In this document: piece by piece, positions 3,218-19,886 of the stretch
Layout of the letters: the number at the start of each line of letters is the position of its first letter
Position numbering within the stretch: position 1 is the first letter of the stretch
NCBI GenBank assembly: GCA_965237415.1
Contig: CBDEFM010000002.1
Span: 3,584,001 to 3,648,000 of the forward strand
DNA from: Alphaproteobacteria bacterium
Lineage (GTDB): Bacteria > Pseudomonadota > Alphaproteobacteria > UBA828
Direction of reading: 5' to 3'
Length of the DNA: 64,000 nucleotides
Made by a program: the position numbers and the translations under genes
Notes under the pieces: generated by a model
What the model saw: only the letters and a program-made list of their open reading frames with translations
Database searches by the model: none
Told to the model about the DNA's origin: nothing

Positions 3218-3306
3218 GGTCGCTCCGCTCGTCGCGATGTGCCTACATGGTGCCGACATGGCGTTTTCGACCCTCCGCCGAAATCCACCTAACCCATTGA
3301 AAAGAT

Positions 3307-3351
3307 TGGTGGGCGCACTAGGACTCGAACCTAGGACCCGCTGATTAAGAG
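3307..3351 (-). repeat. att site: duplicated 3' 45 bp of tRNA-Lys
   Basis: Identical to 19811-19855. Confidence 0.95.
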
Positions 3352-3414
3352 ATGGCATATGACCAGAGGGCAGGGGTTGTCTTGAGTTGGCTGGACATAG
3401 AAGAAATATATTTA

Positions 3415-3427
3415 TATCAATCAGTTA
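3415..3427 (+). promoter_or_regulatory. IHF-binding site near att
   Basis: TATCAATCAGTTA matches WATCAANNNNTTR, with an AT-rich tract upstream. Confidence 0.6.
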
Positions 3428-3533
3428 TCAGGTGGGATAGGCGGTTTCGAAGGTCAGGGTGTGCAGTGAGTGATCGTGACATTACTTCAGTTTGTTGACT
3501 TTGGTGTTGATCAGATGCGGGCGATGCACCAAC

Positions 3534-4772
3534 ATGGGTCGCATGGGCGAGACCATTGGAAAGCGCGTGGCGAGGGTGAAGCTGACCCTCAGCAAGCGGA
3601 ACATCGACAACCTCGAGGCTGGGAACAAGCCCTGGATCGCGTGGGACGACAAGCTGACCGGCTTCGGGATGAAGGTGTATCCCTCGGGCAAGAAGTCCTT
3701 TGTGGTGAATTACCGCAGCGGAGAGGGGAGTCGGAAGGATCGCAACAATCGTGTCGTCATTGGGCACTACGGCAGGATAAGTGCGGAGGAGGGGCGACGG
3801 CGCGCCCACAAGCTGCTTGGTGAGGTTGCCAGCGGCGGCGACCCAGCGGAAGAACGCGCCGAAGCCCGTCGCATGCCGCTGCTTTCCGAGGCCTTCGAGG
3901 ACTACATGGCGGTCAATCCAAACCGGAAGGCACGCACGAATGAGGACTATCGGAAAGTCTTCAGGCGTTATCTCAGCGACTGGGGGAAGCGTGCCCTGGA
4001 CGCCATTACCCGACAGGACGTGGAGGCCCGCTTCAACAGTCTGACCGTCGAAAGCGGTTGGGCTTCAGCCAACCAAGCCATATCGCTATTGCGTTCGGTG
4101 TATCGACGGCCTTGCGTCGACATCGAGGGGTTACGCAGCCCGGTCGACCTGTGGCTGGCCGGTGGTGGCAAGTTCCATCGAAATGTGCGGCGCAAGATTT
4201 CGTCGCCGGCCGAAGTGCTGCCGCGTTGGCGGATGGGTATCGAGGCCGCGGTGGAAAATCGCGTGATGAGAGACACGCTGTGGTTTGGGGTCTACACCGG
4301 TATGCGCCTCAACGAGGTCCTTCCGCTGCGCTGGGAGAGCGTGGATCGGGATGGCCGGGTCTTCCGGGTTGACGAAACCAAGACGGGGGTTCCGCTTGAA
4401 CTGCCCATTACCCGTCAGGTCGGAACGGTTTTGGATCGTCGTTGGGCGGAGAACGGCGATCAGCAGGGCGGCTGGGTATTTCCATCCCGTCGCAGCGGCA
4501 CGGGGCACATCATAGGCGTGAACAACTATTACGCGGCGATCGGCAAGGCCGGGGGCGCGAAGTTCTGGTATCACGCGCTGCGCAACTGCTTCATTACGAT
4601 CGCTGAACGGGACCTGATGATCGCTCACACCCTGACCAAGCGGCTGGTCAACCATGTCCCGCCGAGGGATGTGACCGAAGGGTACGCAGCAGATTGGACA
4701 ATTGACCAATTGCGTGAGCCTGCCCAAAGGATTGCCGACCGAATCGAGATCCTGATGGGGAAAGGGCTGTGA
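3534..4772 (+). CDS. Tyrosine integrase with N-terminal arm-binding domain
   Basis: WDDKLTGFGMKVYPSGKKSF arm domain; catalytic R (GMRLNE), HALR, NH, Y (VTEGY). Confidence 0.92.
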   Translation: MGRMGETIGKRVARVKLTLSKRNIDNLEAGNKPWIAWDDKLTGFGMKVYPSGKKSFVVNYRSGEGSRKDRNNRVVIGHYGRISAEEGRRRAHKLLGEVASGGDPAEERAEARRMPLLSEAFEDYMAVNPNRKARTNEDYRKVFRRYLSDWGKRALDAITRQDVEARFNSLTVESGWASANQAISLLRSVYRRPCVDIEGLRSPVDLWLAGGGKFHRNVRRKISSPAEVLPRWRMGIEAAVENRVMRDTLWFGVYTGMRLNEVLPLRWESVDRDGRVFRVDETKTGVPLELPITRQVGTVLDRRWAENGDQQGGWVFPSRRSGTGHIIGVNNYYAAIGKAGGAKFWYHALRNCFITIAERDLMIAHTLTKRLVNHVPPRDVTEGYAADWTIDQLREPAQRIADRIEILMGKGL

Positions 4773-5164: not shown

Positions 5165-6046
5165 TCACCGGTTGAGAGTGCGCCGCCAGTCCTTTCGGAG
5201 GGGGCGGAGCCAGATGTCCCTCTTCGGTTGATCCCGTCTGGTGTGTCGGTCGTAGCGGCCCCGTCCCTTGGTGGTTCCGACGAGGGTCCAGCCGGACGCC
5301 TTGTATAGCGCGCCGGTGAAGCGCGGGGTCTCGACGAAGGTCTCGATGAGCACGGGCGTGGTGTTGTAGCGCTCGGTCCAGTCGTCGGGCAGTTGGCGGC
5401 GGACCAGGGAGAGGATGTGCGAGCCCAGGTTCGGGATCGCGATCCAGGGCAGGATCAGGAACCTCGGGTTGTCGATCACGAGCGGAAGGTTCTTCTCGCG
5501 CAGTTGCGGCGTCCATCCGATGAAGCTGTCGCGGGGCGCGAGCTTGCGTGCCGCTGTGCTGAAGCCGAGCATGGCGAGCGGCCCGCCGTCGCGGTCATGG
5601 ACGACGTAGCGCATCTGGGCGCCGACCAGGGTCTTGTATCCGAGGTAGTGGTAGCGGGCGATGAACTCGTTCCAGCGCTTGCCCTCGCGGGTGTAGCGCA
5701 TGACGGGGCGAAGGCTGAGCGGGCGGACCTCATCGAGCGTTGTCGGCGGCGGGAACGGCGGCGGTTCGGTGTCCGGTCCGAAGACCATCGGCCGGCGCGG
5801 GGGGCGTGGCCATTTCGGCGGCGGCAGCGTGATCAGGCCGTCGTTGTACATGGCCAGCATCGTGACCCTGGCCATCATGTCCTTGAGTCCGCCGTCGGGC
5901 TTGAACCAGCCGATGCGCCGGCAGAACTCCCTCGACAGTGCATGGCGGTTGGGCGGCGGGTCGGCGGCAATCAGCGCACGCAGCAGCGCCATCTCCCCGG
6001 TGGTGAAGTGTCGCCCGTAGTAGCGGCACTCGACGTCGGAGGTCAT
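5165..6046 (-). CDS. DUF4338 (DruA-like) domain protein, IS-associated
   Basis: HYLGYKTLVGAQMRY, RDSFIGW, NPRFLILPW, NLGSHIL, ETFVE, YKASGW motifs. Confidence 0.85.
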   Translation of the reverse strand: MTSDVECRYYGRHFTTGEMALLRALIAADPPPNRHALSREFCRRIGWFKPDGGLKDMMARVTMLAMYNDGLITLPPPKWPRPPRRPMVFGPDTEPPPFPPPTTLDEVRPLSLRPVMRYTREGKRWNEFIARYHYLGYKTLVGAQMRYVVHDRDGGPLAMLGFSTAARKLAPRDSFIGWTPQLREKNLPLVIDNPRFLILPWIAIPNLGSHILSLVRRQLPDDWTERYNTTPVLIETFVETPRFTGALYKASGWTLVGTTKGRGRYDRHTRRDQPKRDIWLRPLRKDWRRTLNR

Positions 6047-6545
6047 CCCGGCGCCATCAGAGCGCGCCTGCGTTCCTCGCTCATGGACCATGGAAGCCAT
6101 GGCGACAGGTCGTCTGGCGGTTGGCCGCCATTATTCGCGCAAGCTTGAAGCCACGCCTCCAGCCAGCGCCGGACATCGATGCCGTTGGTCTTCAGCGTGG
6201 CGACGACGGAGTACATCAGCGCGGTGAACCGCGCGCCAGTCTCGCTGTCGGATCCGAAGCTCAGCCGTCTTCCGATGACCGGGCCCCTGAGCGCGCGCTC
6301 GGCGGCATTATTGTCCATGGGCACCTGGGGCTTGTCGACGAAGACGCTCAGCCCGTCGCGATGGTTGAGCAGCGAGCGCAGGGCCTTGGTCTCACGCGCC
6401 CCGGCCGGCAGGGCGGCGAGTTCCCGCTCGGCGGTTGCGAACAGGCGCTCGACCTCCACTTCCAACGCGCCCTGCGCTTGCGCGAACGCCGCCGTCTGGC
6501 GCTCGAGAGCGGGGTCGTAATGCTCCAACCTCGCCTCGTTCACCG
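6043..6545 (-). pseudogene. IS66 transposase C-terminal fragment
   Basis: VPMDNNAAERALRGPVIGRRLSFGS...YSVVATLK...LPW. Confidence 0.85.
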
Positions 6546-7396
6546 CCGAGAACATCCAGGCCTTTCTGCCCACCTTCAAGAACGCCCTCATCCGCCGCGG
6601 GCTCCCCCAGCGCCTATACGTCGACAATGGCGCCGCCTACCGCTCCCGTCAGCTCGTCCTGATCTGCGCAAAGCTCGGCATGGCCCTCGTCCATGCCCGG
6701 CCCTATCAGCCGGCTGGGAAGGGTAAGATCGAGCGCTTCTTCAGGACGCTGCGCGCCGGCTGGCTCAACCACCTCGATCCTCAGGCTCTGGACAGCCTCC
6801 AGACCCTGAACCGCAGCCTCTGGGCCTGGATCGAGGGCGAGTATCACAACTCCCCCCATCGCGGCATCGAGGGGCGCACGCCGCTCGAGCAATGGGCACT
6901 GGCCAGTGCAGGCGTCCGCTACCCCGATGCCACCCTCGACCTCGACGAGATCTTCCTCTTCGAGGCCAGGCGCCTCGTCCACAAGGATCGCACCGTCAGC
7001 CTGAACGGCCGCCTCTACGAGGTCGATCCCCTCCTCGTCGGGCAGAAGGTCATCTTGCGCTACGACCCGGACGCGCCGCCCTCCCGGCCCCTCGATGTCG
7101 TCCACGACGGAAAGCCCGCCGGTAAGGCCAGCCAGCGCCTCGTCGTCCGACACCATCTCACCGGCCTCGATCGGGATGAGGTCGACGCCTATCTCAAGCA
7201 CCGCCTCCGCCTCGCCGGGTGCGAGCTGCCCCTGTTCGAGGCGCCCGCCGTCGAGGCCCTGTTCCAGAGCGCCAGGGGCCTGCCGCGGCAGATCAACCGC
7301 ATCGCCCACTACGCCCTCTCCGCCGCCGCCCTCGACAAGGCAAGAACCGTCAACGCAGAGCACCTCCAGCACGCCCTGGACGAGCTCAGGCCATGA
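6545..7396 (+). pseudogene. Mu-like/rve DDE transposase fragment fused in frame to ExeA-type AAA ATPase C-terminus
   Basis: LYVDNGAAY...KGKIERFFRT then QRLVVRHHLTGL...GLPRQIN; middle deleted. Confidence 0.8.
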
Positions 7397-8517: not shown

Positions 8518-10167
8518 TCAGCCGAATTCTCTGGGGTCCACACGATCCGCGAAGCGGCGCTCCAACTCACCTTCACCGTTGCAAGCTGGGCAGTCATTCC
8601 CGAGAAAATGACGTTTTCCATTGCAGAGGGGGCATTCGATAGACTGATAATCCTGCACCTCGATTCTATCTAGGTCTCGACGATCAATCTGTGCCTCGCC
8701 GCTGCAAACTGGGCAATCGTCGCCCTTACGTCTTCCTTGGCCGTCACACACGGGACAATCGACTTTCTGGTAATCTTGAAGTTCGACCGCTTCAGCGAAT
8801 CGCCGCTGCATACTTCCTTCCCCGCCGCATTCAGGACAGTCTCGGTCCTCGTAACTACCCGCACCATCACAGAGGGGACATTCGATCGACTGATAATCCT
8901 GCACCTCGATTCTATCTAGGTCTCCACGGTCAATCTGTGCCTCGCCGCGGCAAGCTGGGCAATCGTCTCCCATATATCTTCCTTGGCCGTCACACACGGG
9001 ACAATTGACTTTCTGGTAATCTTGAAGTTCGACCGCTTCAGCGAAGCGCTGCTGCATACTTCCTTTCCCGCCACATTCAGGACAGTCTCGGTGCTCGTAA
9101 CGACCCGCACCATCGCAGAGGGGACAGGCGACATCTTCGTAGTCCCGCACGTCAATGCTATTGGCGTAGCGTCGGGCCATCCGAGCCTCTCCGTCGCAGG
9201 CGGGGCAAGGTTCTTGCGTCAGGGTCCCCATGCCCTCGCAAACGGGGCAGTCAACGTACCCGTACTCTCTAAGGTCGATTACCTTGGCAAGTCTCGGCTC
9301 AATCTCACGATCTCCGTTACATACAGGGCAGTCGGTTCCCTCATGTTGGCCGCCACTCTCACAAAGCGGGCAGGTCACGAAGCCAAAGGCCGCAACATAC
9401 TTCTTTCGAATCTTCTCTGCCCTTTTAAGACGCTTCACTATGTTTGACTTGCTTTTCGACAACGAGATCGCGTCTGCGGATATCGTCTCGTAAACAGCAT
9501 ACTTTGGATCAGTCTCGGATACAGGAGCGAGCCCCGGAAGGGCAGCGAGCGTCTCCTTTGCAAGTTTCTTTACTGCCTTAATCTGTTCCTTTGTTTTGGC
9601 TCTTTTTAGCTGCTTTTTAAGGCCATTACAGTTCTCCAATACGTAGAAAAGTTGGTGGCTAACTTCATGCTGTGTACGCCAGAGCATTACCCGATAACGT
9701 CGCAGTGCTTGCTTGAAGATGGCGACGAAAAAAGCGTTTTCTTTATCGGGACCGAACAGTCCATTGTCGTAAGCGACATGGTGGTTGGCGCAGAGCCACA
9801 AGAGATTTTCTGGATGGTTATTGTCGCTCTTTGCAACCGGGTCCAGGTGTGCCGCTTCACAAGTATCCTTATGACTGTGACAAACGGCGCACTCGCCGTT
9901 TGCCTCTTGCTTGATCTCGCGCCTAATGCCGGTGGGGATGTGAGGGCGTCGTCCGTCTTTGCGAGGCCACGGCCGCTTCAGCCAGTTGTTGAAATCGAGA
10001 ACCTCTTCTTCATCGAAAAACAAGGTATCGTTCTTGATCTTCGCAGCTTTGAGTTTTCGTTTACTGCCGTGCTTCGGGGAGTACGAGGTAAGCCACCGCA
10101 GCAATGTTGGTGACATCGCTGTCAAAGCCGCTGCCTCGTACTCGCTGATGAGAGTTTTCTTGACCAT
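8518..10167 (-). CDS. HNH endonuclease with 7 tandem DnaJ-like CxxCxGxG zinc-finger units
   Basis: CAVC...AAHLDP...NHPENLLWLCANHH HNH motif; 14 C-terminal CPxC motifs in 41-aa units. Confidence 0.85.
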   Translation of the reverse strand: MVKKTLISEYEAAALTAMSPTLLRWLTSYSPKHGSKRKLKAAKIKNDTLFFDEEEVLDFNNWLKRPWPRKDGRRPHIPTGIRREIKQEANGECAVCHSHKDTCEAAHLDPVAKSDNNHPENLLWLCANHHVAYDNGLFGPDKENAFFVAIFKQALRRYRVMLWRTQHEVSHQLFYVLENCNGLKKQLKRAKTKEQIKAVKKLAKETLAALPGLAPVSETDPKYAVYETISADAISLSKSKSNIVKRLKRAEKIRKKYVAAFGFVTCPLCESGGQHEGTDCPVCNGDREIEPRLAKVIDLREYGYVDCPVCEGMGTLTQEPCPACDGEARMARRYANSIDVRDYEDVACPLCDGAGRYEHRDCPECGGKGSMQQRFAEAVELQDYQKVNCPVCDGQGRYMGDDCPACRGEAQIDRGDLDRIEVQDYQSIECPLCDGAGSYEDRDCPECGGEGSMQRRFAEAVELQDYQKVDCPVCDGQGRRKGDDCPVCSGEAQIDRRDLDRIEVQDYQSIECPLCNGKRHFLGNDCPACNGEGELERRFADRVDPREFG

Positions 10168-10379
10168 TGTACGAAACACTGTAAGTGAATGATTACGAAA
10201 CGGATTTTGACGAGTCTAGATTTCCTCTATATTTCTCGATCGCAGACTTCACAATGCCGACGACCTTGGTCAGGAATGTCCGAGCTTGTAGTCTCAGGAC
10301 TGGTCTGACCGGCGAAATGTTATCCTCGTATGGGCGGCAGATTACTGTAGCACGGCGGGAAACCGAATTGTAACCGGGA

Positions 10380-10836
10380 TCGGTGTAAGCAGTCATCCAA
10401 TCGTTGCGGCGCTGATCAGCAAGCCGTTTCTTCAGGAGGTCAAGCAGGGCGTTGATCGATGAACAGCGCCTCGATCGCCGTTGCATCTTGGCCGAGACGG
10501 CAACGTTCCACCGCGATCCGCATTCTAAAATGGCTGCAGGCCACGATGACCGGGACGCGGGTCGGCATCCACGGTAGTCTTGATCGCGAGTAGGAGCTGC
10601 GGGACGCGTTGGATTTCGTCGATGATCGCCCGGTCAAGATCGCAGACGAAACCAACGGGATCGGCGGATGCGGAGTCGAGGACGGTGGCGTCGTCGAGCG
10701 TTACGAATGGGACATCGTTGCCCGCAATCCGCTGCGCAAGCGTGATCTCGCCTGATTGCCGGGGGCCGCAAAACAGCACGACCCTGGTGTCCGTCAGGGC
10801 TTCCCGAATCCGCCCTTCAACAAAACGAGGATACAT
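10380..10836 (-). pseudogene. AAA_14/DUF4143-type ATP-binding protein remnant
   Basis: GPRQSGEITL (degenerate Walker A), IIDEIQRVP; truncated. Confidence 0.75.
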
Positions 10837-10970
10837 GCCGCCGTCTCGGATCACTGACCGTTGGAAAGATGACCTTCAACGAATTGAAAGTCAATATCCG
10901 ACCAATTGAAACAACGCAGCCGACTCTGCCGCTGACGGATGGGGCCTGCAAGTGGAAGCACGGTGGCCGA

Positions 10971-11645
10971 TCAGCGAGTGGGCGAAGATTCCGCAGCGAT
11001 CGCCAGATCACCGTCGATGCTGTCACCAATACGGGCAGCAGACGCCTTGACGGTGTCGCGAGCGAGGTGGGCATAGCGGGCCGTCGTCTGAACCTGGGTG
11101 TGACCCAGCAGCTTCCCGATCATTGGCAATCCTTCGCCGAGCGCCAGTGCGCGCGAGGCGAAGCTGTGGCGCAGGTCGTGGATCCGCACATCGTCGAGCT
11201 CAGCGCGCGCACGGATACGCCTCCAAGGATGCTGAAGGTCGGTCAAATGGCTGCCCGGCTTTTTGCCTGCGATCACCCAACAGTTGTCCTCGTCGCGGGG
11301 CAGGGACTCCAGGAGCCGCACTGCGGACGGGGCAAGCGGAACCGCCCGCCCCCCGGTCTTGGCGTCGGGAAGCCGCAGCTCGCCCGCCTCCAGGTCAACA
11401 TGCTCCCACTGTAGCTTCTGGATCTCCGACAACCGGCAACCGGTCAGCATCAGCAGGCGAATCGCCACCAACGCGGAGCGGGACTCCGAACCTTCCTGGA
11501 GAATCTCGTCCAGCACGCGCCCGAGACGGGCGAACTCCTCGGCACTCAGGAAGCGCTCGCGCTTCTCCTCCCTGTAGCGCTTGACGTGTAGACATGGGTT
11601 CGAGCCGTCGGGACGGAGGCCCCACATGCCAGCGGCCGATCTCAT
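10971..11645 (-). pseudogene. Tyrosine integrase C-terminal half
   Basis: TGCRLSEI, HDLRHSFAS, LGHTQVQTTARY; N-terminus missing. Confidence 0.85.
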
Positions 11646-11675
11646 AGAGACTATGTCCTGCCTTAGAGCACCACG

Positions 11676-13601
11676 CTACCAAGCCGCACTTTCCAACGCG
11701 GCCTCTGCTACCGCGCAGTAGCGCGCCAGGGCTGGCTCTGCGCGAACGAGACGACGAATACTGTGAAGTAACCGCGTCGATGATTCCTTTCCCTCAACTT
11801 CGAATGCAAGTTCGCTGATCCATTCGCCGGCGAAAGAAGCCCAATTCTCCAACTTCTCGTTTGACGCAGCAGCCAACATAGCGATGCGTATTTGATCCTC
11901 CGCCTCAACGGTCAATCGTTTCCTGCGCCGCATGACCCGATCCAATACCCGCAGCTCTTCCGCAAGGTCCGTGCTCCGAGTAACCGCGGCTACCGTCGCC
12001 AAGCCTCCAATCAACCCGAATAGATTATCATCACTGTCGGCGATTTCAATGGAGTACTTCACTCTACGCAGCGCAGTAGCGGCTAACCCCGCATGACTGG
12101 CGGGCATGCCAAATAGACTAGCCAGGTTCACAAGTCTGGCGAACGAATGTGGTTCCAAGTACTCTGATTTCAGATCGCTTGCCACGTCTTCCAACACATC
12201 GTCAGAGATAGTAGGCACTTCTGACTTAGCTTCCCCCTCCAAAGGTCCAGGAAGCATTCGGAAAGGCCAATCGACCGCGGTCGCCAATCTTGACTCCTCT
12301 CCAACCACGAGGCAGCGCAGCGATTCAGACTTGATTCCCTTCTGCCATCTCTCCACTGCGTTTGAAATTCGGCCCATAAACTCTGCACGCAATTGATATG
12401 GACTAACAAAATCCGGCAACCACCGAGGCTCCAGGCGCAAATCTACCAAGCCCTGTAAGAAGAATACATTGCCGAACCCGCTCGTTTTGGCCCAGTCGAC
12501 AATGGACTCCGCTTTTTCTTCACTTGCATATATTGCGCGAATGATCAGCGAAGCCTGTGCAATAGCCGCCTGCTTTCGGTAAAAGGGTTGAACCTGCCCC
12601 AGCACATGCCTGCGGCTAAGTTCCGATCCAACGAGTACGACGATGGCCGAGAGTAGTGAAAAGCGCCCGCCTTTGTGTTCCGGATCATCCGAGATGAACG
12701 CTTCAATAATCCGCTCAACAAATGGTTCAAGCTCCCTATGCTCCTCAATACTACGAAGTGCCACTTCCACTGCACCCAGCTGCGAAATAGGGTCCCCATG
12801 GTCTGCTAGCCATTCGTACGCCCCTAACAACTCCTGTGAGCTAAACCCCTCAATCCCTATACGCGCCGCTATAGTGCCTGCCGAACACATCAACAGCGAA
12901 TAGAGAAACCCACTAGTAGAATTCCACTTCTGAAGATCGCAGATGAGCTGCGCCGCTCCACCGTTGATGTACTCGTCAGTATTAGAAGCCGAACCTAGGG
13001 AACCAATGAGAAGGTCATAGTACCGCGTTTCGCCTTGCACTAGTGTACCCAGGTCGACACGCCTTTGGGAAAAACCGGACCCAATGTTCTCAAAGGTGCT
13101 AACGGGTGTAAGTGTCAGCGCTTCACGCAACCGCGCGAACTCGTCATCACTCAGCGGTCTGCTAGCCAACCTCTCCATCCATTGCTGTCGTTCACTCCTG
13201 TCAAAATTGACACGCTCTGCAATTTCGTTGAACCAAGAAACCCGAATCTCCTTCTCCTTTGCTAATCCGGAGTGGTCTTCAAGAAGAAATTGGCTACCGG
13301 CGTCCGCGAGCACAAAGGACCAGCTAGAAGCTTTGGCTCGTGCGGTAAGTCGCCACAAGTTGCCCTTGTCGTCCTGAATAGTGACTTCCTCTTCAGGACG
13401 GCCAATGGCTTCTCGCATACCACGGTACAACTCCTCTCGTCGAAAGCACGGCCCATCTTTCCCAATTGCTACACCAGCTGTAGCATTTAGCTCCCAATGA
13501 TCGACGAACTCCTGGTCATCCAGCAGGGATCTCCGCAAGCAAGGAGCCAGGAATCCAAAGGCGGCCACTACTAAGGAATGCTTCGTACGGCTATTGGTCA
13601 T
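11676..13601 (-). CDS. Hypothetical 641-aa protein, partner of upstream giant protein
   Basis: Long lower-GC ORF overlapping the upstream gene by 11 nt. Confidence 0.85.
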   Translation of the reverse strand: MTNSRTKHSLVVAAFGFLAPCLRRSLLDDQEFVDHWELNATAGVAIGKDGPCFRREELYRGMREAIGRPEEEVTIQDDKGNLWRLTARAKASSWSFVLADAGSQFLLEDHSGLAKEKEIRVSWFNEIAERVNFDRSERQQWMERLASRPLSDDEFARLREALTLTPVSTFENIGSGFSQRRVDLGTLVQGETRYYDLLIGSLGSASNTDEYINGGAAQLICDLQKWNSTSGFLYSLLMCSAGTIAARIGIEGFSSQELLGAYEWLADHGDPISQLGAVEVALRSIEEHRELEPFVERIIEAFISDDPEHKGGRFSLLSAIVVLVGSELSRRHVLGQVQPFYRKQAAIAQASLIIRAIYASEEKAESIVDWAKTSGFGNVFFLQGLVDLRLEPRWLPDFVSPYQLRAEFMGRISNAVERWQKGIKSESLRCLVVGEESRLATAVDWPFRMLPGPLEGEAKSEVPTISDDVLEDVASDLKSEYLEPHSFARLVNLASLFGMPASHAGLAATALRRVKYSIEIADSDDNLFGLIGGLATVAAVTRSTDLAEELRVLDRVMRRRKRLTVEAEDQIRIAMLAAASNEKLENWASFAGEWISELAFEVEGKESSTRLLHSIRRLVRAEPALARYCAVAEAALESAAW

Positions 13602-16600
13602 CGTTGGTCTCTAAAAGTTGTTCACAAGCGTCCACGCTATCGGCGACATATTCCTTTGCCCAAGTCAACAGATGCTCGTAAGTCTCAGGGTCTTCTTCTC
13701 GCACCGACTCGAGAATGCGTGTTTCAAACCAGCGCCAGTAGGCTTCCTTTACCGATTGCGGAGGCTCCACGAGCAACGACATCAACATCCAAATCCAATT
13801 CCTGTATCGTTCCATATGCTGGTCGAGGTTGTCGTCTAAACGATGTGCCCAGCCCCTTGGATCGGCTAAAGTAAGCAACCAGTCAGATCGCGCCGCAGCG
13901 GTGGCCTCGTCCATCTCGCCAATCCACTGTTCCCTCAAGCTAAACAGGCACGCCTGATTTACTCCGTTCAGCCACTCTCGCTCGCTTGGAAGCTGAAGCA
14001 TATTACTCATTTGCACCCGTTGGATACTCTCTCGAATAGCCTTAAGCTCTCCGGTCTCCTCTAGAACGCCGTCTCGGACATTGCTACTGGACACTAGCTC
14101 ATTCAATTCGTCGGCATATAATGGTGTCAGAGCGAAGTTTGCCCGTCGCAAAGTGGTAAGAGCATCTTGTTGTTGTGTCTCTGAAATAGCACCGCGTTCC
14201 AGTAAGATGTCCAGCAGATCGATCATAGTGATTATAGGGCGGGAGGTAGTGTCTAGAGTAATAGACCTGTGACGGTTTACATAGCGGTCATCAACCACCC
14301 CTATATCTGAGTCTGTCATTAATTGCAGCAAGTCGATAGTGGGATGCGAGGATATACTTGGTGAATCATCATCGTTCCCACGGCGGGGCGCCTTCCCCAG
14401 ACGAATCTTCTCGCTTTCAAGGCTTTCCCGCAAGCGGACGCGAAGGCGATCCACCATTGAAACCACATCACCAGCACTTGCATCGTAAGAAATTAGAGAG
14501 TCCGCTTCTTCAACGTCTTGGTGTGATACAAATGCCGTTATCTCAGCGCGATGAAGTTTCGGGAGCAGGCCAAGAAAGTGTAGATGTGACGTGGACAAGC
14601 TGTCAAGATAGAGCACCGCCCCATCTCTAATCTCCGGCTCAGTCGGCCATGGTCTTTCTCGAATGTTCAGAGAGGCGTATGCGCTCTCTTGCTCTCGCCG
14701 GGTCAAAACGCCCTTTTCTGCAAGCTTTTTCACTAAGGTGGAACAGCTGCAAAGATGATCCTGGTACTCGCTGATGTCGACCTCTTGCTGCATAAAGGAG
14801 CTAATCTTGTGAATAGGGCCTCCACGTACAACCAGTCGCTGTCTTTCATCCAAGTGTTGTGTCGAAGAAGCCGCGGCAATGAAAGCAGCCAATGATCCTC
14901 CTAGTTCGGTGACCAACTTTTCTGGCGCGGCAGCACTCTCGTCAAAAACACGTAAGTGGCCTTCCGATATCATCGTTCGGAGTTCGCGGGCAGCAAGCAC
15001 ACGGCTCGGCTGATGGAACAAGATTCGTGCCTTTTCTCCCAAAAGCCATCCGAGGGTGCTATGAGGGATTACGATGCTATCGAACGTATCAATGCACTCG
15101 TCAAATAGATTTAGAAACTCCAAAGCTATAAGTGTCGTTGCATCCATCGAAACAACGTCGGCCCTTACCGTGACTGCTTCTCGGGCTCCACTAAATGCAT
15201 ATATAAATGGTCGGCGGCGAACGTCCGACTCGTGCACATTAGTCAGCGCGGGCATCAAATACAGGCTAAGCAAGGACCGGTTCAGCGCTTGTGCTGCAGC
15301 GAACAGCGGAATTTCGCCTCTTTCAAGTAATTCCCAGACACGTTCCTCATGCCCCTCCCAGTCCGGCTTTCTCTTAAGTAGATCATCAATCGTCGCTACC
15401 TGCACAGGCCCTTTGGGGCCTGAGAGTTCTGCTGCTCGCTGTATCCACGAGTGTACTTCAGCGGCATCTTCCCAGCCGCCTGTTGAAGCCAGATGATAAC
15501 TGCCTACCAATATTGTTGGATCGTCCATCGAGCGACTCGCCGCTTCCTTGATCAGATCCCTTCCCCGGCCCGCACCAATATGCTGTGCGATCTCACCAGC
15601 TCGGAGAAGATCGGTGGGCGTACGATCAGCCCGGGCAAGCCATTCAGCTTCTACAAAACCCTGAAGCGACTCCCAATCTCCCGATACCACTGCCAAGCTA
15701 ACCTGTAGATGACGAGCATCCGGCGAATCTTTCAATTGACGAAGTGCACCGACAGCTACCAATGCATCGTTCAGCTTGCCACACTCAAGATATGTCTGTG
15801 CTCGCAATAGTCGCATATCGGTATCTTGAGACCAGAGCGCAGGATATGTCTCAAGCACTGTGATCACTTTTTGAGGCTGCTCGCAATTGTGCAAAGAAAT
15901 CACATATCGACGCACATCTTCAAGATCTCCTCCAACTTCAACAAGGGTCTTGCCGTGCTCGCAGGCTTTCCTCCAATCACCCGCGTCTTCGTATGCTCTC
16001 ACGAGCAAACGCAATTCGATGATTGACGTATTCTCGTTATATGCTGCCAGTCTCTCCGCGATGGGATCCGCGCCGGAGGTCTCTGACAGTTCGCGACGAA
16101 GACGAGCGACGTCTCGTGCGGACAATGGCTTTCCCGCAGCTTCTTCCAGTAATTCCTCGGCCTTTGCAGTTTGTCCCGCATTAGCCAACATTTCGATTTC
16201 AATAAAATAAAGCCCCCTGGGGTCAAGATGCTTAAAGAGTTGCTCCCGGTGTTCGTTGATATAGGCTGCGATATCTGCATGGCTGCCCTTGCTTAGGGCT
16301 AAGGCCAGTCGTGCGATTGCGGCATCCCGCGACATACCTCCACTGAGGGCAGTCTGCCGAGTAACCTCGGCTTCGGCCCGCTCTATATCTATACTCACGC
16401 CAAACTGCAGTCCCAGGCTAAGTCGGCGCAGAAACGTTGAAGGGTCATTGACACTCTCAAGCAGTTCCTGACGCGCGTCTGCGGAGTACTCCGGGTCCAC
16501 CAGCCGTAACCAAAGCGCCCTGTCCTCCGCTAGCCCTGCCATTCCCATTAGACCGAGCGACTTCGCAACGTTATGCAATTGATCGTACAGTTGAATGGCT

Positions 16601-18228
16601 GTTCGTCGATGCTGGATGGCGAGCGGTTCACTGCGCAAGGGAAACTTCACAGCATCAAACGGCATGTCTTGAGCCAAAAACGTTTCCCGTAGTTCGTCCG
16701 GTACCGCCTGCAAAAGAAGGGCATCTGCGCTTGCTGCAAGTAGCCCTGGCGTTTCCTCCCAATCGTTCGGCGTCAAAACTCCCGCCATATCAAACGCTAG
16801 GTTCCAACTTCCCTCCTGCAAAGCGCTTCGAATATAGGAGAACTTGCCATGGCCATCGAGATCGGCGAACGTTAGTCCAGCCTCATCCAACCACGTATTC
16901 GCACTCTTGAAGCCCCTTGCTCCGAGTACCTGAATGTATGCGGCCCCGTAAGCTACTGGCGTTCCAATGCCACAAAGCTCACGTATCGCGTCGGGTATAT
17001 CACCTTTGAGTGACTTCACAACGCTTCGAGCAATGTTGTAAACTTCGCTATTGGCGGTTCCGATGCGGTTCACGAGCGACTCTGCTTCATCGAGATCGCT
17101 TCCAGCAAGAAAGCGGCAGCACCAAGAGAGCGCTGTATCTTTGTGTTCTTCGTTCGCCTGCGCGAGATCACCGCCCTCGAGATTAGCAACAAGGCTCTTC
17201 ACTTCGTCTATTACTAGAAACTCAGAAAAGTATCGGCATTTGCGGATACGTTCCAGCCGGCGGTCAACTTCTGTGTCGATTATTGAGGCGTGAGAACCGT
17301 GCATTGCGGGCCCTAGAGTGATGGCACCTCGCATATCCGAAAACGCTGCAATCTGGCCTTTGGTGAGCGAAACAAGCTCTTGAAGCTGGTCAGTGTTTCT
17401 TTCAAGAACTTGATCAGGACGCGTTACCTGAAGTGGCGGATCAAAGGAGCGGCGTATGAATTCCCGCACATGGATATAGACCTCAGCCTCTTTATTAGTT
17501 GGTTTGCATATACTCATATGGTCTTGGTCAACAGGGATGGGTGTCTCGGGCAAACCGGCGTCTGCACTCTCGGTTGTCACGATTTTCCCTATCGCGGTTG
17601 GCAGCTGAATGCCGAATACTCCAGATGGCTTTCCCTCAGAGAGGAGTAAGTTTCCCATGTTATTGTTCATACTGTGGTGTCTATACCAATGATTTAGATC
17701 GCGAAGTTGAGAACTACCCAAAATCAAGTCGTTCGTCACTTCGGATGGCCTAATCAAGGGCCATAACATTCTTGACAGGTTTGCCAAGAGAGCGCCTCGA
17801 TGAGGTGTTCCGAGGAAAGCTATGCGCTTTACACGGACCAGGAAATTTCGTGCTCTCGGGTTTGTGCCTGATTCTCTCTCCGCATTACGTAGAATTTGCT
17901 TTGCGACCAGCCCGCCAAGACTGTGAGCAACGAAGATAATATTGCCGCCTGCAAGCCCTGATTCTGCCAATAGGAGAGCCAAGATGCTGTCTGCACGTTC
18001 TGGAATAGAGATTCCAGTTCCACCCCAATATGTTTTTGCAGCCGGGTATCCCACAAGCCATAGATCGATGTCGGGAATATCGTCTTCCAACCGGAGGGGC
18101 CATAGCTCTGTAGAGTTATCAGTCGTAGTTGTCCAAGTTCTCTCAATATGTCCTGAAAGCCCGTGGATGAATAAAACGTGTGTCTCTACATTCGTAGCCT
18201 TTGTTGAGATGGTGCGTAGGATGGACAA
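13591..18228 (-). CDS. Alpha/beta hydrolase (PGAP1/SERAC1-like) + helical/TPR-like + PIN-like multidomain protein
   Basis: FIHGLSG, VAHSLGGL, FLGTPHRG, DHMSICKP; helical middle; VSMDATTL...IVIPHST and VVDDRY PIN-like motifs. Confidence 0.8.
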   Translation of the reverse strand: MSILRTISTKATNVETHVLFIHGLSGHIERTWTTTTDNSTELWPLRLEDDIPDIDLWLVGYPAAKTYWGGTGISIPERADSILALLLAESGLAGGNIIFVAHSLGGLVAKQILRNAERESGTNPRARNFLVRVKRIAFLGTPHRGALLANLSRMLWPLIRPSEVTNDLILGSSQLRDLNHWYRHHSMNNNMGNLLLSEGKPSGVFGIQLPTAIGKIVTTESADAGLPETPIPVDQDHMSICKPTNKEAEVYIHVREFIRRSFDPPLQVTRPDQVLERNTDQLQELVSLTKGQIAAFSDMRGAITLGPAMHGSHASIIDTEVDRRLERIRKCRYFSEFLVIDEVKSLVANLEGGDLAQANEEHKDTALSWCCRFLAGSDLDEAESLVNRIGTANSEVYNIARSVVKSLKGDIPDAIRELCGIGTPVAYGAAYIQVLGARGFKSANTWLDEAGLTFADLDGHGKFSYIRSALQEGSWNLAFDMAGVLTPNDWEETPGLLAASADALLLQAVPDELRETFLAQDMPFDAVKFPLRSEPLAIQHRRTAIQLYDQLHNVAKSLGLMGMAGLAEDRALWLRLVDPEYSADARQELLESVNDPSTFLRRLSLGLQFGVSIDIERAEAEVTRQTALSGGMSRDAAIARLALALSKGSHADIAAYINEHREQLFKHLDPRGLYFIEIEMLANAGQTAKAEELLEEAAGKPLSARDVARLRRELSETSGADPIAERLAAYNENTSIIELRLLVRAYEDAGDWRKACEHGKTLVEVGGDLEDVRRYVISLHNCEQPQKVITVLETYPALWSQDTDMRLLRAQTYLECGKLNDALVAVGALRQLKDSPDARHLQVSLAVVSGDWESLQGFVEAEWLARADRTPTDLLRAGEIAQHIGAGRGRDLIKEAASRSMDDPTILVGSYHLASTGGWEDAAEVHSWIQRAAELSGPKGPVQVATIDDLLKRKPDWEGHEERVWELLERGEIPLFAAAQALNRSLLSLYLMPALTNVHESDVRRRPFIYAFSGAREAVTVRADVVSMDATTLIALEFLNLFDECIDTFDSIVIPHSTLGWLLGEKARILFHQPSRVLAARELRTMISEGHLRVFDESAAAPEKLVTELGGSLAAFIAAASSTQHLDERQRLVVRGGPIHKISSFMQQEVDISEYQDHLCSCSTLVKKLAEKGVLTRREQESAYASLNIRERPWPTEPEIRDGAVLYLDSLSTSHLHFLGLLPKLHRAEITAFVSHQDVEEADSLISYDASAGDVVSMVDRLRVRLRESLESEKIRLGKAPRRGNDDDSPSISSHPTIDLLQLMTDSDIGVVDDRYVNRHRSITLDTTSRPIITMIDLLDILLERGAISETQQQDALTTLRRANFALTPLYADELNELVSSSNVRDGVLEETGELKAIRESIQRVQMSNMLQLPSEREWLNGVNQACLFSLREQWIGEMDEATAAARSDWLLTLADPRGWAHRLDDNLDQHMERYRNWIWMLMSLLVEPPQSVKEAYWRWFETRILESVREEDPETYEHLLTWAKEYVADSVDACEQLLETNDDQ

Positions 18229-18592
18229 GTCAATTCTCCGACGAAGCAGATGTTGTCTGGCTTCGGAGTGATGCAGCGTACACTTCAGTCATTTTCTTTG
18301 CTTCGCGAGTATATCTGCGATCATTGTTGACTTCCGCGATTTACACCCTTCGATGTTGTCCAATCCTTCACTCTCTGCACTCCGATCCCGGCTTCGACCG
18401 CGCCGGACATCGTATGCGCCAGCGAACGCAGAAAGCACTCAGTATGGCGGAGGGTACGGACCTCCGTGCCCACAGGCGAGGCCCTGTTGTTGGAGGTGAC
18501 CCAAGGCCGCCTATCGGCTGCTGATGGCCGCGCTCGCCTGGAGAGCGAATACCGCCACGCTCTCGGTTCGGCAACAGTTTCGGCAGTGCTTC

Positions 18593-18910
18593 CTAGCGAA
18601 CCGTATCTACCTTGAGATGAAGTCGTTCGCGATCCTGAAGGCAGGCAATGACCTCGAATAGGTTTCGAGCTTGGGGATTCCCGTTGGGACTGAACATGCG
18701 CATCAAGCTCTTTGGCGACTTCTCAGTCAGGCCGCCCAGCGCTTGAAAGCCGATCGTGGCGTTGATGTAGTCGCGCAAAACCGCCTTGCCGGTGTCAATG
18801 TCTCCCGACAGCAGGCATTCGACCCCCTCCTTGAGCAGCTCTTCCCGGAAAGCTGGATCGCGGTCGCTACGCGCCTTGATCGTTTCCTTGAAGTCGCGTG
18901 TCAGAGACAT
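18593..18910 (-). CDS. Addiction module antitoxin (HTH)
   Basis: LRDYINATIGF...KSLMRMFSPNGNP; directly downstream of toxin. Confidence 0.85.
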   Translation of the reverse strand: MSLTRDFKETIKARSDRDPAFREELLKEGVECLLSGDIDTGKAVLRDYINATIGFQALGGLTEKSPKSLMRMFSPNGNPQARNLFEVIACLQDRERLHLKVDTVR

Positions 18911-19320: not shown

Positions 19321-19566
19321 CTATCCCGCCACTTGTGCAATCCTGCTGGCAATGCGGTTCGCGGCCGATTTGACGGGATCGTTGGCGAGATGAGCGTAGC
19401 GGGCGGTGGTCTGCACCTGGGTATGGCCGAGCAGCTTGCCGATCATTGGCAAGCCTTCGCCGACCAGGAGCCCGCCGCTGGCGAACGAGTGGCAAAGGTC
19501 GTGGATCCGGACGTCCTTGAGTTCGGCCCGCGCCCGGATGCGCCGCCAGGGGTGCTGAAGGTCGAT
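19321..19566 (-). pseudogene. Second tyrosine integrase C-terminal remnant
   Basis: DLQHPWRRIR...RIHDLCHSFAS...LGHTQVQTTARYAHL, paralogous to 10971-11645. Confidence 0.8.
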
Positions 19567-19810
19567 GAGCGGAAGGTGAACTGGATGCTGAACTGTGCCG
19601 TGGGGACATCGAGATTTGCCGCTGCTGGGGCCACGGCCTTCCCTGAACCCCGTCCGATAGCTGTCGGATTGGCCCGGCGCAGTCGCTACCGCTGTCCATC
19701 CAGGATCAGAGAATGACCGGATCTGACCGCACCTCGTGGAGACTTGTTGACTTTTAGTTGACTTCGCTCAACATCGCATGATCGGTGATCGGATAACCCC
19801 TTGAAAAGAT

Positions 19811-19886
<76 letters not shown>

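Follow-up and report, generated by a model that had tools for sequence, protein, structure and literature searches.

A pair of overlapping genes, encoding a large protein of 1545 amino acids (aa) and a partner of 641 aa, is found in a stretch of DNA from an Alphaproteobacteria bacterium of the UBA828 lineage (assembly GCA_965237415.1, contig CBDEFM010000002.1, positions 3,584,001 to 3,648,000; these 64,000 nucleotides (nt) as a whole are referred to as the window). The pair is here proposed, with a probability of roughly 0.65, to represent a horizontally acquired two-subunit immune, or conflict, system from a large family, which forms a branch of the TPR-GreA/B-C-PIN (TGP) proteins with a split and rearranged architecture. 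Judged from its domain matches, the pair is very probably a two-protein relative of these proteins, and an immune role for it is quite probable. An earlier note on this DNA, made from the letters alone, had described a sensor-effector anti-phage system with an uncharacterized partner. The assignment to the conflict systems stands, but the partner is not wholly uncharacterized, as Pfam has a family, PF24388, that most of its relatives match. The note had also been unable to match the pair to any named system; such a match does exist, since PF24407, PF20698 and PF24388 together tie it to the TGP architecture.

The two genes had been described as long, visibly lower in GC content and overlapping by 11 nt, and all of this holds. 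Both open reading frames (ORFs) are intact, and both fall in the length class of their relatives, which are of 1549, 1549 and 1548 aa for the large protein and 641-642 aa for the partner. The GC fraction across the two genes (12-18 kb) is 0.50-0.55, against 0.61-0.72 in the core genes that begin at around 20 kb with enolase and the E1 component of pyruvate dehydrogenase. The sequence GGAGA is found 6 nt on the 5' side of the TTG start of the large gene, and the 11-nt overlap of the two genes, ATGACCAATAG, is a predicted translational coupling. The positions of the two genes, of their domains and of the surrounding features are given in Table 1.

Table 1. Coordinates of the two-gene system, its predicted domains and its surroundings (window positions, unless stated otherwise).
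Feature	Position	Strand	Basis or remark
Large gene	13591..18228	-	intact ORF, 1545 aa, TTG start
Partner gene	11676..13601	-	intact ORF, 641 aa, ATG start
Gene overlap, large-gene stop and partner start	13591..13601	-	11 nt, ATGACCAATAG
Alpha/beta-hydrolase head (DUF676/PGAP1/SesB-like lipase-esterase), large-protein residues 1-270	17419..18228	-	Pfam, PADLOC, conserved triad
Helical TPR-like middle, residues 271-940, constant	15409..17418	-	TPR_14 match, BLASTP conservation
PF24407 'HTH_upstream_double_PIN' domain, residues 941-1020	15169..15408	-	Pfam, 947-1016
First PIN, residues 1021-1200	14629..15168	-	D1029, H1056, E1065, E1149, D1151
Second PIN, residues 1201-1345	14194..14628	-	full acidic set D1209, D1260, D1313/D1314, D1337
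Conserved Trp-rich helical tail, residues 1346-1545	13594..14193	-	joins partner directly in fused forms
Small alpha/beta domain, partner residues 43-107, 'Permuted GreAB-C'	13281..13475	-	Pfam PF24388
All-helical solenoid, partner residues 117-640	11682..13253	-	predicted model
tRNA-Lys(CTT)	19811..19886	-	island-proximal end
Attachment repeat, proximal copy, 62 nt	19794-19855		overlaps tRNA-Lys 3' part
Attachment repeat, distal copy, 62 nt, 98% identical	3290-3351	.	far island end
Integrase gene	3492..4772	+	just inside distal repeat
Truncated integrase	10971..11645		island remnant
Third integrase-like remnant	19350-19564		76% identical to 11027-11241
DruA-like (Druantia) fragment, 311 aa, and adjoining IS66 transposase fragment	5165..6100 and 6043..6627	both -
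553-aa ORF, HNH_2 nuclease domain and four DnaJ-type CXXCXGXG zinc-finger stretches	8518..10179	-
Second, distant copy in the same genome, fused 2127-aa ORF	about 2264938-2271321 (locus L081 6939..13322)	+

The tie to the TGP proteins is carried in part by the C-terminal region of the large protein. The family PF24407 is matched there with an E-value (E) of 5e-25 and a score of 88 bits, the cut-off being 27, and both PF24407 and PF20698, the latter named by Pfam 'PIN domain associated with the TPR-GreAB-C-PIN system', are found in all 62 of the C-terminal regions of the family (best PF20698 match, 4.4e-18). The unsplit large protein of the window itself scores weakly with PF20698 (19.7-23.1 bits, cut-off 27.8), and is 27-64% identical to members of the family that match the model. 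When the two PIN segments are isolated, the first is matched in 47 and the second in 59 of the 62 sequences (best 4.7e-15), and a common origin of the two halves is suggested because both match PF20698. Direct alignment of the first with the second by hhalign is weak, with an E of 0.005-0.007 and a probability of 5-7%, and covers the first beta-alpha-beta unit alone.

An AlphaFold2 (AF2) model of residues 941-1545, based on an alignment of the 62 sequences, has a predicted local distance difference test (pLDDT) score of 89.2 and a predicted template modeling (pTM) score of 0.84, with helices over residues 941-1020. A structure search with this model is headed by PIN entries, and the PINs of VapC, SMG6, Nmd4 and Utp24 are among the matches. 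Foldseek against the PDB returned nothing at E<=0.001 for this model or for that of the partner, and a profile search of the C-terminus against PDB sequences found no match. Conserved acidic residues on a PIN fold are present in the C-terminal region, and the two segments that the earlier note had picked out as PIN-like are real: the stretch VSMDATTL..IVIPHST includes D1029 and H1056, which belong to the first PIN, and LYLDSLS..VVDDRY includes D1209 and D1313/D1314, which belong to the second. In the second PIN the four conserved acidic positions are spaced as they are in PIN domains; D1313 is invariant (62/62), and D1209 and D1337 are each found in 58 of the 62 sequences.

The partner consists, in its AF2 model (pLDDT 90.3, pTM 0.89), of N-terminal helices, an alpha/beta domain and a helical solenoid of about 520 residues, for which the structure matches are of a generic repeat-protein kind only. 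The alpha/beta domain is the part that corresponds to PF24388, and the Pfam model is matched by 19 of 23 relatives of the partner, the best at 9.5e-15. It is solely from this model that a link of the domain to the Gre factors is drawn. The order of elements over residues 43-107 of the model is two short strands, one helix and four strands, and the succession of a helix and then four strands is compatible with a circular permutation, without being in itself a test of one. The profile of the partner gave one chance-level PilM row against PDB sequences (E 0.47), and a Protein Atlas search with residues 1-135 gave no usable match. A 2019-aa ORF of a congener with a weak GreA_GreB match was considered and ruled out as unrelated to the profiles of the family. 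Pfam identifies no NTPase family in either protein, no scan having been aimed at a Walker A motif, and the NCBIfam and PHROGs searches gave nothing meaningful.

The two genes are regularly found together. An alignment-based profile of the partner, searched against contigs at one genome per species, located 84 places, of which 80 were kept as loci; a search for loci with the single partner sequence, unlike the alignment-based search, found none. The loci span Proteobacteria, Acidobacteriota, Chloroflexota, Latescibacterota, Nitrospirota, Verrucomicrobiota, Spirochaetia and one Thorarchaeota metagenome-assembled genome (MAG). A survey of gene neighborhoods had been recommended as a check on conserved pairing, and the core of the large protein is indeed located directly upstream of the partner in 73 of the 80 loci. 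In 55 of the 80 a same-strand ORF of >=1000 aa ends at the partner start, typically with an overlap of 4, 8 or 11 nt, and in 6 the core and the partner make up one fused ORF of 1889-2014 aa with the partner at the C-terminus. The remaining 19 comprise 12 loci in which the upstream core is fragmented or runs off a contig end, 5 in which the contig is cut at the partner, and 2 truncated partner remnants; an intact partner without a core was not seen among the 80. The 55 split and 6 fused loci provide the 61 large ORFs used for the counts of segments, heads and neighbors given below. By BLASTP, each of the constant segments (middle region, HTH, the two PINs and tail) is found in all 61. Between core and partner, the pairwise identities correlate with a Pearson coefficient of 0.96 (1830 pairs, not independent of one another). 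The two genes are inherited together.

Among 1.84 billion representatives, clustered at 50% identity, the partner profile matches 1465 at E<=0.001, a number that falls to 1253 at E<=1e-10 and to 838 at E<=1e-30. Of the best 150, 19 exceed 1400 aa and have the partner part at the C-terminus, and so are fused. On a tree of the constant C-terminus, at least 5 changes are required to explain the fused or split state. Because fusion recurs in this way, there is strong evidence, of a comparative kind, that the large protein and its partner would work as one complex. At one locus (L039) the partner is interrupted by about 6 kb of inserted DNA: residues 1-212 are encoded at 3254-3892, and 10001-11308 encodes residues 198-629. 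The Thorarchaeota MAG (L065) has a complete pair on a 12-kb contig, with a large ORF of 1367 aa and a 4-nt overlap, next to a gene for a restriction enzyme of the BsuBI/PstI type; this Asgard-binned pair could be the outcome of a transfer into archaea or of a binning error.

The recurrent fusion also bears on a very improbable alternative, in which the genes would form an addiction module of the toxin-antitoxin kind that stabilizes the island or a plasmid, with the large protein and its PIN and lipase domains as toxin and the partner as inhibitor. Such a module would accord with the use of PINs as the toxins of VapBC systems, with the VapC entries in the structure search, with the translational coupling of the genes and with their location on mobile DNA, which includes a conjugative plasmid where the pair resides beside a VapBC pair. 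However, a partner of 641 aa that is encoded downstream, and that has no match in Pfam to an antitoxin-like DNA-binding family, is poorly suited to the part of inhibitor. Its fusion to the supposed toxin in 6 of the 61 loci and 19 of the top 150 representatives is impossible for an unstable antitoxin, and the exchangeable heads, described below, follow the pattern of immune effectors.

The N-terminal head of the large protein belongs to the alpha/beta hydrolases. All of the motifs listed in the earlier note are present, namely HGLSG (residue 22), AHSLGG (101), GTPHRG (140) and the DH pair, found within DQDH (234). The nucleophile elbow AHSLGG provides Ser103, and Asp234-x-x-His237 completes a triad of which all three members are invariant in the 23 hydrolase-headed relatives (23/23). 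In Pfam the head has weak matches to DUF676, Abhydrolase_6, DUF7379 and PGAP1, over residues 18-166 and below cut-off, and in relatives of the large protein hydrolase families score above it. PADLOC, which had been put forward as a further check, is informative for this part of the system: the PADLOC 2.0 model PDLC02918 matches the head at 4e-27 over residues 19-266. The label of that model is 'DUF626_VIII', and the system that owns it could not be found.

The idea of a SesB/PGAP1-like effector head is supported by homology to the heads of STAND proteins and fungal NLRs. The head is 58% identical (E 1e-89) to that of a 1625-aa bacterial NACHT/AAA_22/AAA_16 protein (P0278), and has homologues among bacterial TPR proteins and, at 25-35% identity (E 1e-23 to 1e-7), in many fungal NACHT/NB-ARC proteins whose repeats are of the WD40, ankyrin or TPR kind and which are annotated as het-eN or GPI inositol-deacylase. 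The identity of 58% with P0278 would reflect a recent shuffling of the effector between NTPase-based and nuclease-based sensors. From these relationships the hydrolase head is presumed to be the killing effector. The middle region, in which TPRs had been expected, has one TPR_14 match above cut-off in Pfam (residues 739-773, 28.1 bits against 23.5) and a weak TPR_19 match; this single repeat scores, and the remainder of residues 271-940 is probably helical. The middle region as a whole is presumed to act as a sensor or scaffold.

The swapping of N-terminal effectors, which the neighborhood survey had also been intended to reveal, is evident in the set of 61 large ORFs. A hydrolase is present in 22 of them, and 14 have an HNH-like module of about 90 aa, of which 6 match HNH_2; a further 7 carry one of five other types, including one TIR. 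The head is missing in 18, where fewer than 50 residues precede the constant region. At least 16 changes of head are required on the core tree, and close neighbors differ between none and HNH-like, or between HNH-like and TIR. The N-terminal head is therefore exchangeable. As 18 of the 61 relatives are headless, it is suggested that the double-PIN core may be able to act without a head. It would also seem that the head can be duplicated or can occur as a subunit of its own, because a separate alpha/beta-hydrolase ORF is found just upstream of a headless large ORF at one locus (L076, 5378-6250) and just upstream of a large gene with a hydrolase head of its own at another (L025, 4539-5297).

The location of the pair speaks for horizontal acquisition. 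The tRNA-island setting surmised earlier is borne out by the tRNA-Lys(CTT) gene and by a 62-nt direct repeat that consists of the 3' part of the tRNA plus 17 nt; from its two copies, at 3290-3351 and 19794-19855, the island is seen to be 16.5 kb in length and bounded by attachment repeats. The surrounding DNA is degraded, as had been stated, and contains integrase remnants together with DruA-like, IS66 and AAA_14 fragments. Two integrase remnants that are 76% identical flank the two-gene system, and a full integrase is located at the far end of the island. This arrangement, of one full integrase and two bracketing remnants, suggests a composite island that may have arisen by tandem integrations followed by decay. 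The DruA-like fragment is probably the leftover of another defense system. The 553-aa ORF, whose combination of HNH_2 and zinc fingers is an unusual architecture within a defense-type island, also scores as Anti-TRAP and has inside it a 246-nt tandem duplication (8618-9109) whose copies are 92% identical. A scan for promoters and terminators over 11300-18800 gave nothing that exceeded shuffled controls.

The partner was not found in any of 40 relatives of the genome of the window, 20 of which are of the same genus. Together with the low-GC island bounded by attachment sites, the variation of the heads between HNH, TIR and lipase and the patchy distribution across phyla, this argues against a housekeeping factor for RNA processing or transcription quality with no immune role. 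That explanation is extremely improbable, even though Gre-like and PIN domains are both involved in ordinary transcription and RNA decay and the PINs of SMG6, Nmd4 and Utp24 are among the structure matches.

Elsewhere, among the ORFs that immediately flank the 61 loci (112 in all, counted without a background control), restriction or abortive-infection families are represented in 10 loci, these being AIPR, AbiTii (twice), ResIII, HsdR (twice), HsdS (twice), Mrr and BsuBI/PstI; 13 of the 61 have an integrase, serine recombinase or transposase as nearest neighbor. The pair is also carried by the conjugative plasmid pAtN33_94 of Agrobacterium fabrum, where the genes on its two sides are VapBC, an integrase, one that is HsdR-like and a SIR2 gene; RefSeq labels both genes of the pair 'hypothetical protein'. 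The same label prevails in the public annotation of the family, with a few members called 'HTH domain-containing protein' or 'esterase/lipase family protein'. Phage records searched with the partner gave no match. The genome of the window has a second, distant copy in fused form, with PF24407 at residues 898-965 (1.8e-18) and a full-length PF20698 match at 1160-1271 (3.2e-9), at the place equivalent to the second PIN of the window. The C-terminal part of this 2127-aa protein is 22% identical to the partner, and the copy is flanked by a Fic/DOC protein with a winged helix, a Ser/Thr kinase and a TraI/AAA_30 helicase.

How such a system might operate can be outlined with the help of the TGP hypothesis. 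In the proposal of Kaur et al. 2021 (PMC8195603), as set out in the available parts of that article, the Gre-like domain engages the beta' coiled coil at the secondary channel of virus-hijacked RNA polymerase, the PIN cuts the extruded transcript, and the head serves as a back-up suicide effector. By analogy, the large protein and the partner would form one complex, the core of which would sense infection. The Gre-like domain of the partner may, after Kaur et al. 2021, bind to the secondary channel of RNA polymerase, and transcripts made from the DNA of the invader may be cut by the two PINs. The hydrolase head would be kept inactive until the core is triggered, and would then destroy membrane lipids or another ester substrate, so that the cell is killed or arrested and the infection aborted. 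Docking on RNA polymerase as the sensing step is drawn from the Pfam name and the published hypothesis, and is somewhat less likely than not. The full picture, of a widespread family in which a permuted Gre domain would plug into the secondary channel of RNA polymerase, tandem PINs would act on invader transcripts and the suicide head would be exchangeable, is, taken as a whole, somewhat unlikely.

In another version of the same immune system, which is rather improbable, the core would not touch RNA polymerase. Instead, the partner domain and solenoid or the TPR region would directly recognize a phage protein or nucleic acid, and this recognition would merely switch the effectors on, as in sensors of the STAND/NLR type and in the Bab/Agp system described below. 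The similarity of the partner domain to GreA could not be confirmed, direct sensors, namely STAND NTPases and TPR proteins, carry the same hydrolase head, and the large helical surfaces predicted for both proteins would suit the recognition of a protein. Against direct recognition, the curated model that Pfam names permuted GreAB-C finds its match in 19 of the 23 partners, and the two PINs with their conserved acidic residues are strictly kept, also in the 18 headless forms among the 61. Because both are so retained, cutting of RNA or DNA by the core would appear to matter.

A number of observations weigh against the proposal of a two-subunit TGP-type immune system, some on its Gre-like component and others on its wider claims. 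PF24388 scores 25.9 bits on residues 47-98 of the partner in the window, which is under the cut-off of 27. Alignment by hhalign of partner residues 36-118 with 30 alphaproteobacterial GreA C-terminal domains gave an E of 0.086, and with tandem-duplicated GreA C-terminal domains, an arrangement that allows for permutation, an E of 0.19; the effective number of sequences (Neff) of the template was low, at 2.8. The isolated PIN halves of the window have no PF20698 match at E<=0.01, and the first PIN is without two of the usual acidic residues, having A1119 where 56 of the 62 sequences are acidic and Q1148 where 59 of 62 are. Neither the partner nor the core is represented by a model in PADLOC 2.0, so that this check is silent on both, and the counts of flanking genes lack the control mentioned above. 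The sequencing runs that were found (4 holders, 2 studies) include none recorded as RNA. In the literature searched no experiment on the two-gene form was found, and the authors of the Bab/Agp work, in the available text of their preprint (bioRxiv 10.1101/2024.11.07.622273), saw no first-line activity of Agp that was independent of Bab.

If the proposal is true, the pair would be the first case in which immunity that senses infection directly at RNA polymerase could be tested. A transcription-coupled immunity of this sort has yet to be demonstrated for any system. The published TGP hypothesis is unverified, and the one member that has been tested was, in the available text, shown only to trigger its partner by amyloid templating. 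The split form has the advantage of two separable subunits, and natural fused and headless versions of it are available for comparison. A further advantage is that the lipase head is common to fungal and bacterial immune proteins of the NLR type. The family, which comprises well over a thousand sequence clusters, also escapes the PADLOC 2.0 models.

Several known systems share individual parts with the pair. The SesB/PGAP1-like heads of fungal NLRs and bacterial STAND NTPases are homologous to residues 1-270 of the large protein but, unlike those heads, the one in the window is placed on a core of nuclease and TPR without any NTPase. To PINs of the VapC/SMG6 type there is a likeness in fold searches, with no sequence-level match to solved PIN structures. 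In contrast to VapBC, there is no VapB-like antitoxin, and two tandem PINs are found inside a protein of 1545 aa. The LmuA model of Lamassu (PADLOC PDLC03851), which we take to describe a lipase-type effector, gives a weak match over residues 86-125 (E 4.9e-4, 18 bits) that is far below that of PDLC02918, and unlike Lamassu the locus has no SMC-like LmuB and no LmuC.

It is with the TGP proteins that the comparison goes furthest. As described by Kaur, Iyer, Burroughs and Aravind (eLife 2021, PMC8195603), in the parts of the article available, these are single proteins that run from a variable head through TPRs and GreA/B-C to a new type of PIN, and they mostly stand alone. Common to them and the pair are the variable head (HNH, TIR and others), the TPRs, a PIN of the PF20698 type and, by the Pfam naming, a Gre-like domain, along with a patchy spread in bacteria and the predicted logic of a constant sensor or first-line core joined to a suicide effector. 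They differ in arrangement. In a TGP protein GreA/B-C is located between TPR and PIN, a position taken in the pair by the PF24407 HTH. The Gre-like match of the pair is found instead in the N-terminus of the separate partner, and is permuted according to the Pfam naming (PF24388), whereas a TGP protein is one polypeptide. The pair also has a doubled PIN followed by a helical tail, where TGP proteins have a single PIN, and a conserved adjoining partner gene, where they are mostly standalone genes with few conserved neighbors. The heads that Kaur et al. 2021 name in the available text do not include an alpha/beta hydrolase. In the literature searched, no paper was found on a two-gene form that combines a doubled PIN with a permuted Gre-like domain; Figure 2-source data 1 of Kaur et al. 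may list such forms. As the Pfam models PF24407 and PF24388 exist, their curators had already seen the double-PIN and permuted GreAB-C domains.

The only relevant find in the literature was the Bab/Agp preprint, the DefensePredictor and 'embedded defences' papers mentioning other PIN systems. In Escherichia coli ECOR25, Agp, a protein of the TGP type, acts together with Bab to mediate abortive infection against phage T5 by amyloid templating (bioRxiv 10.1101/2024.11.07.622273), and within the sources and portions of text available this is the only experimental evidence that the TGP architecture defends against phage. Bab/Agp resembles the pair of the window in combining a TGP-type core with the product of an adjacent second gene, the outcome in its case being abortive infection. 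In the preprint, however, Bab is an executioner of 109 aa that targets the membrane, whereas in the two-gene system of the window the second protein would be part of the constant core, and the part of executioner would fall to the fused lipase-like head.

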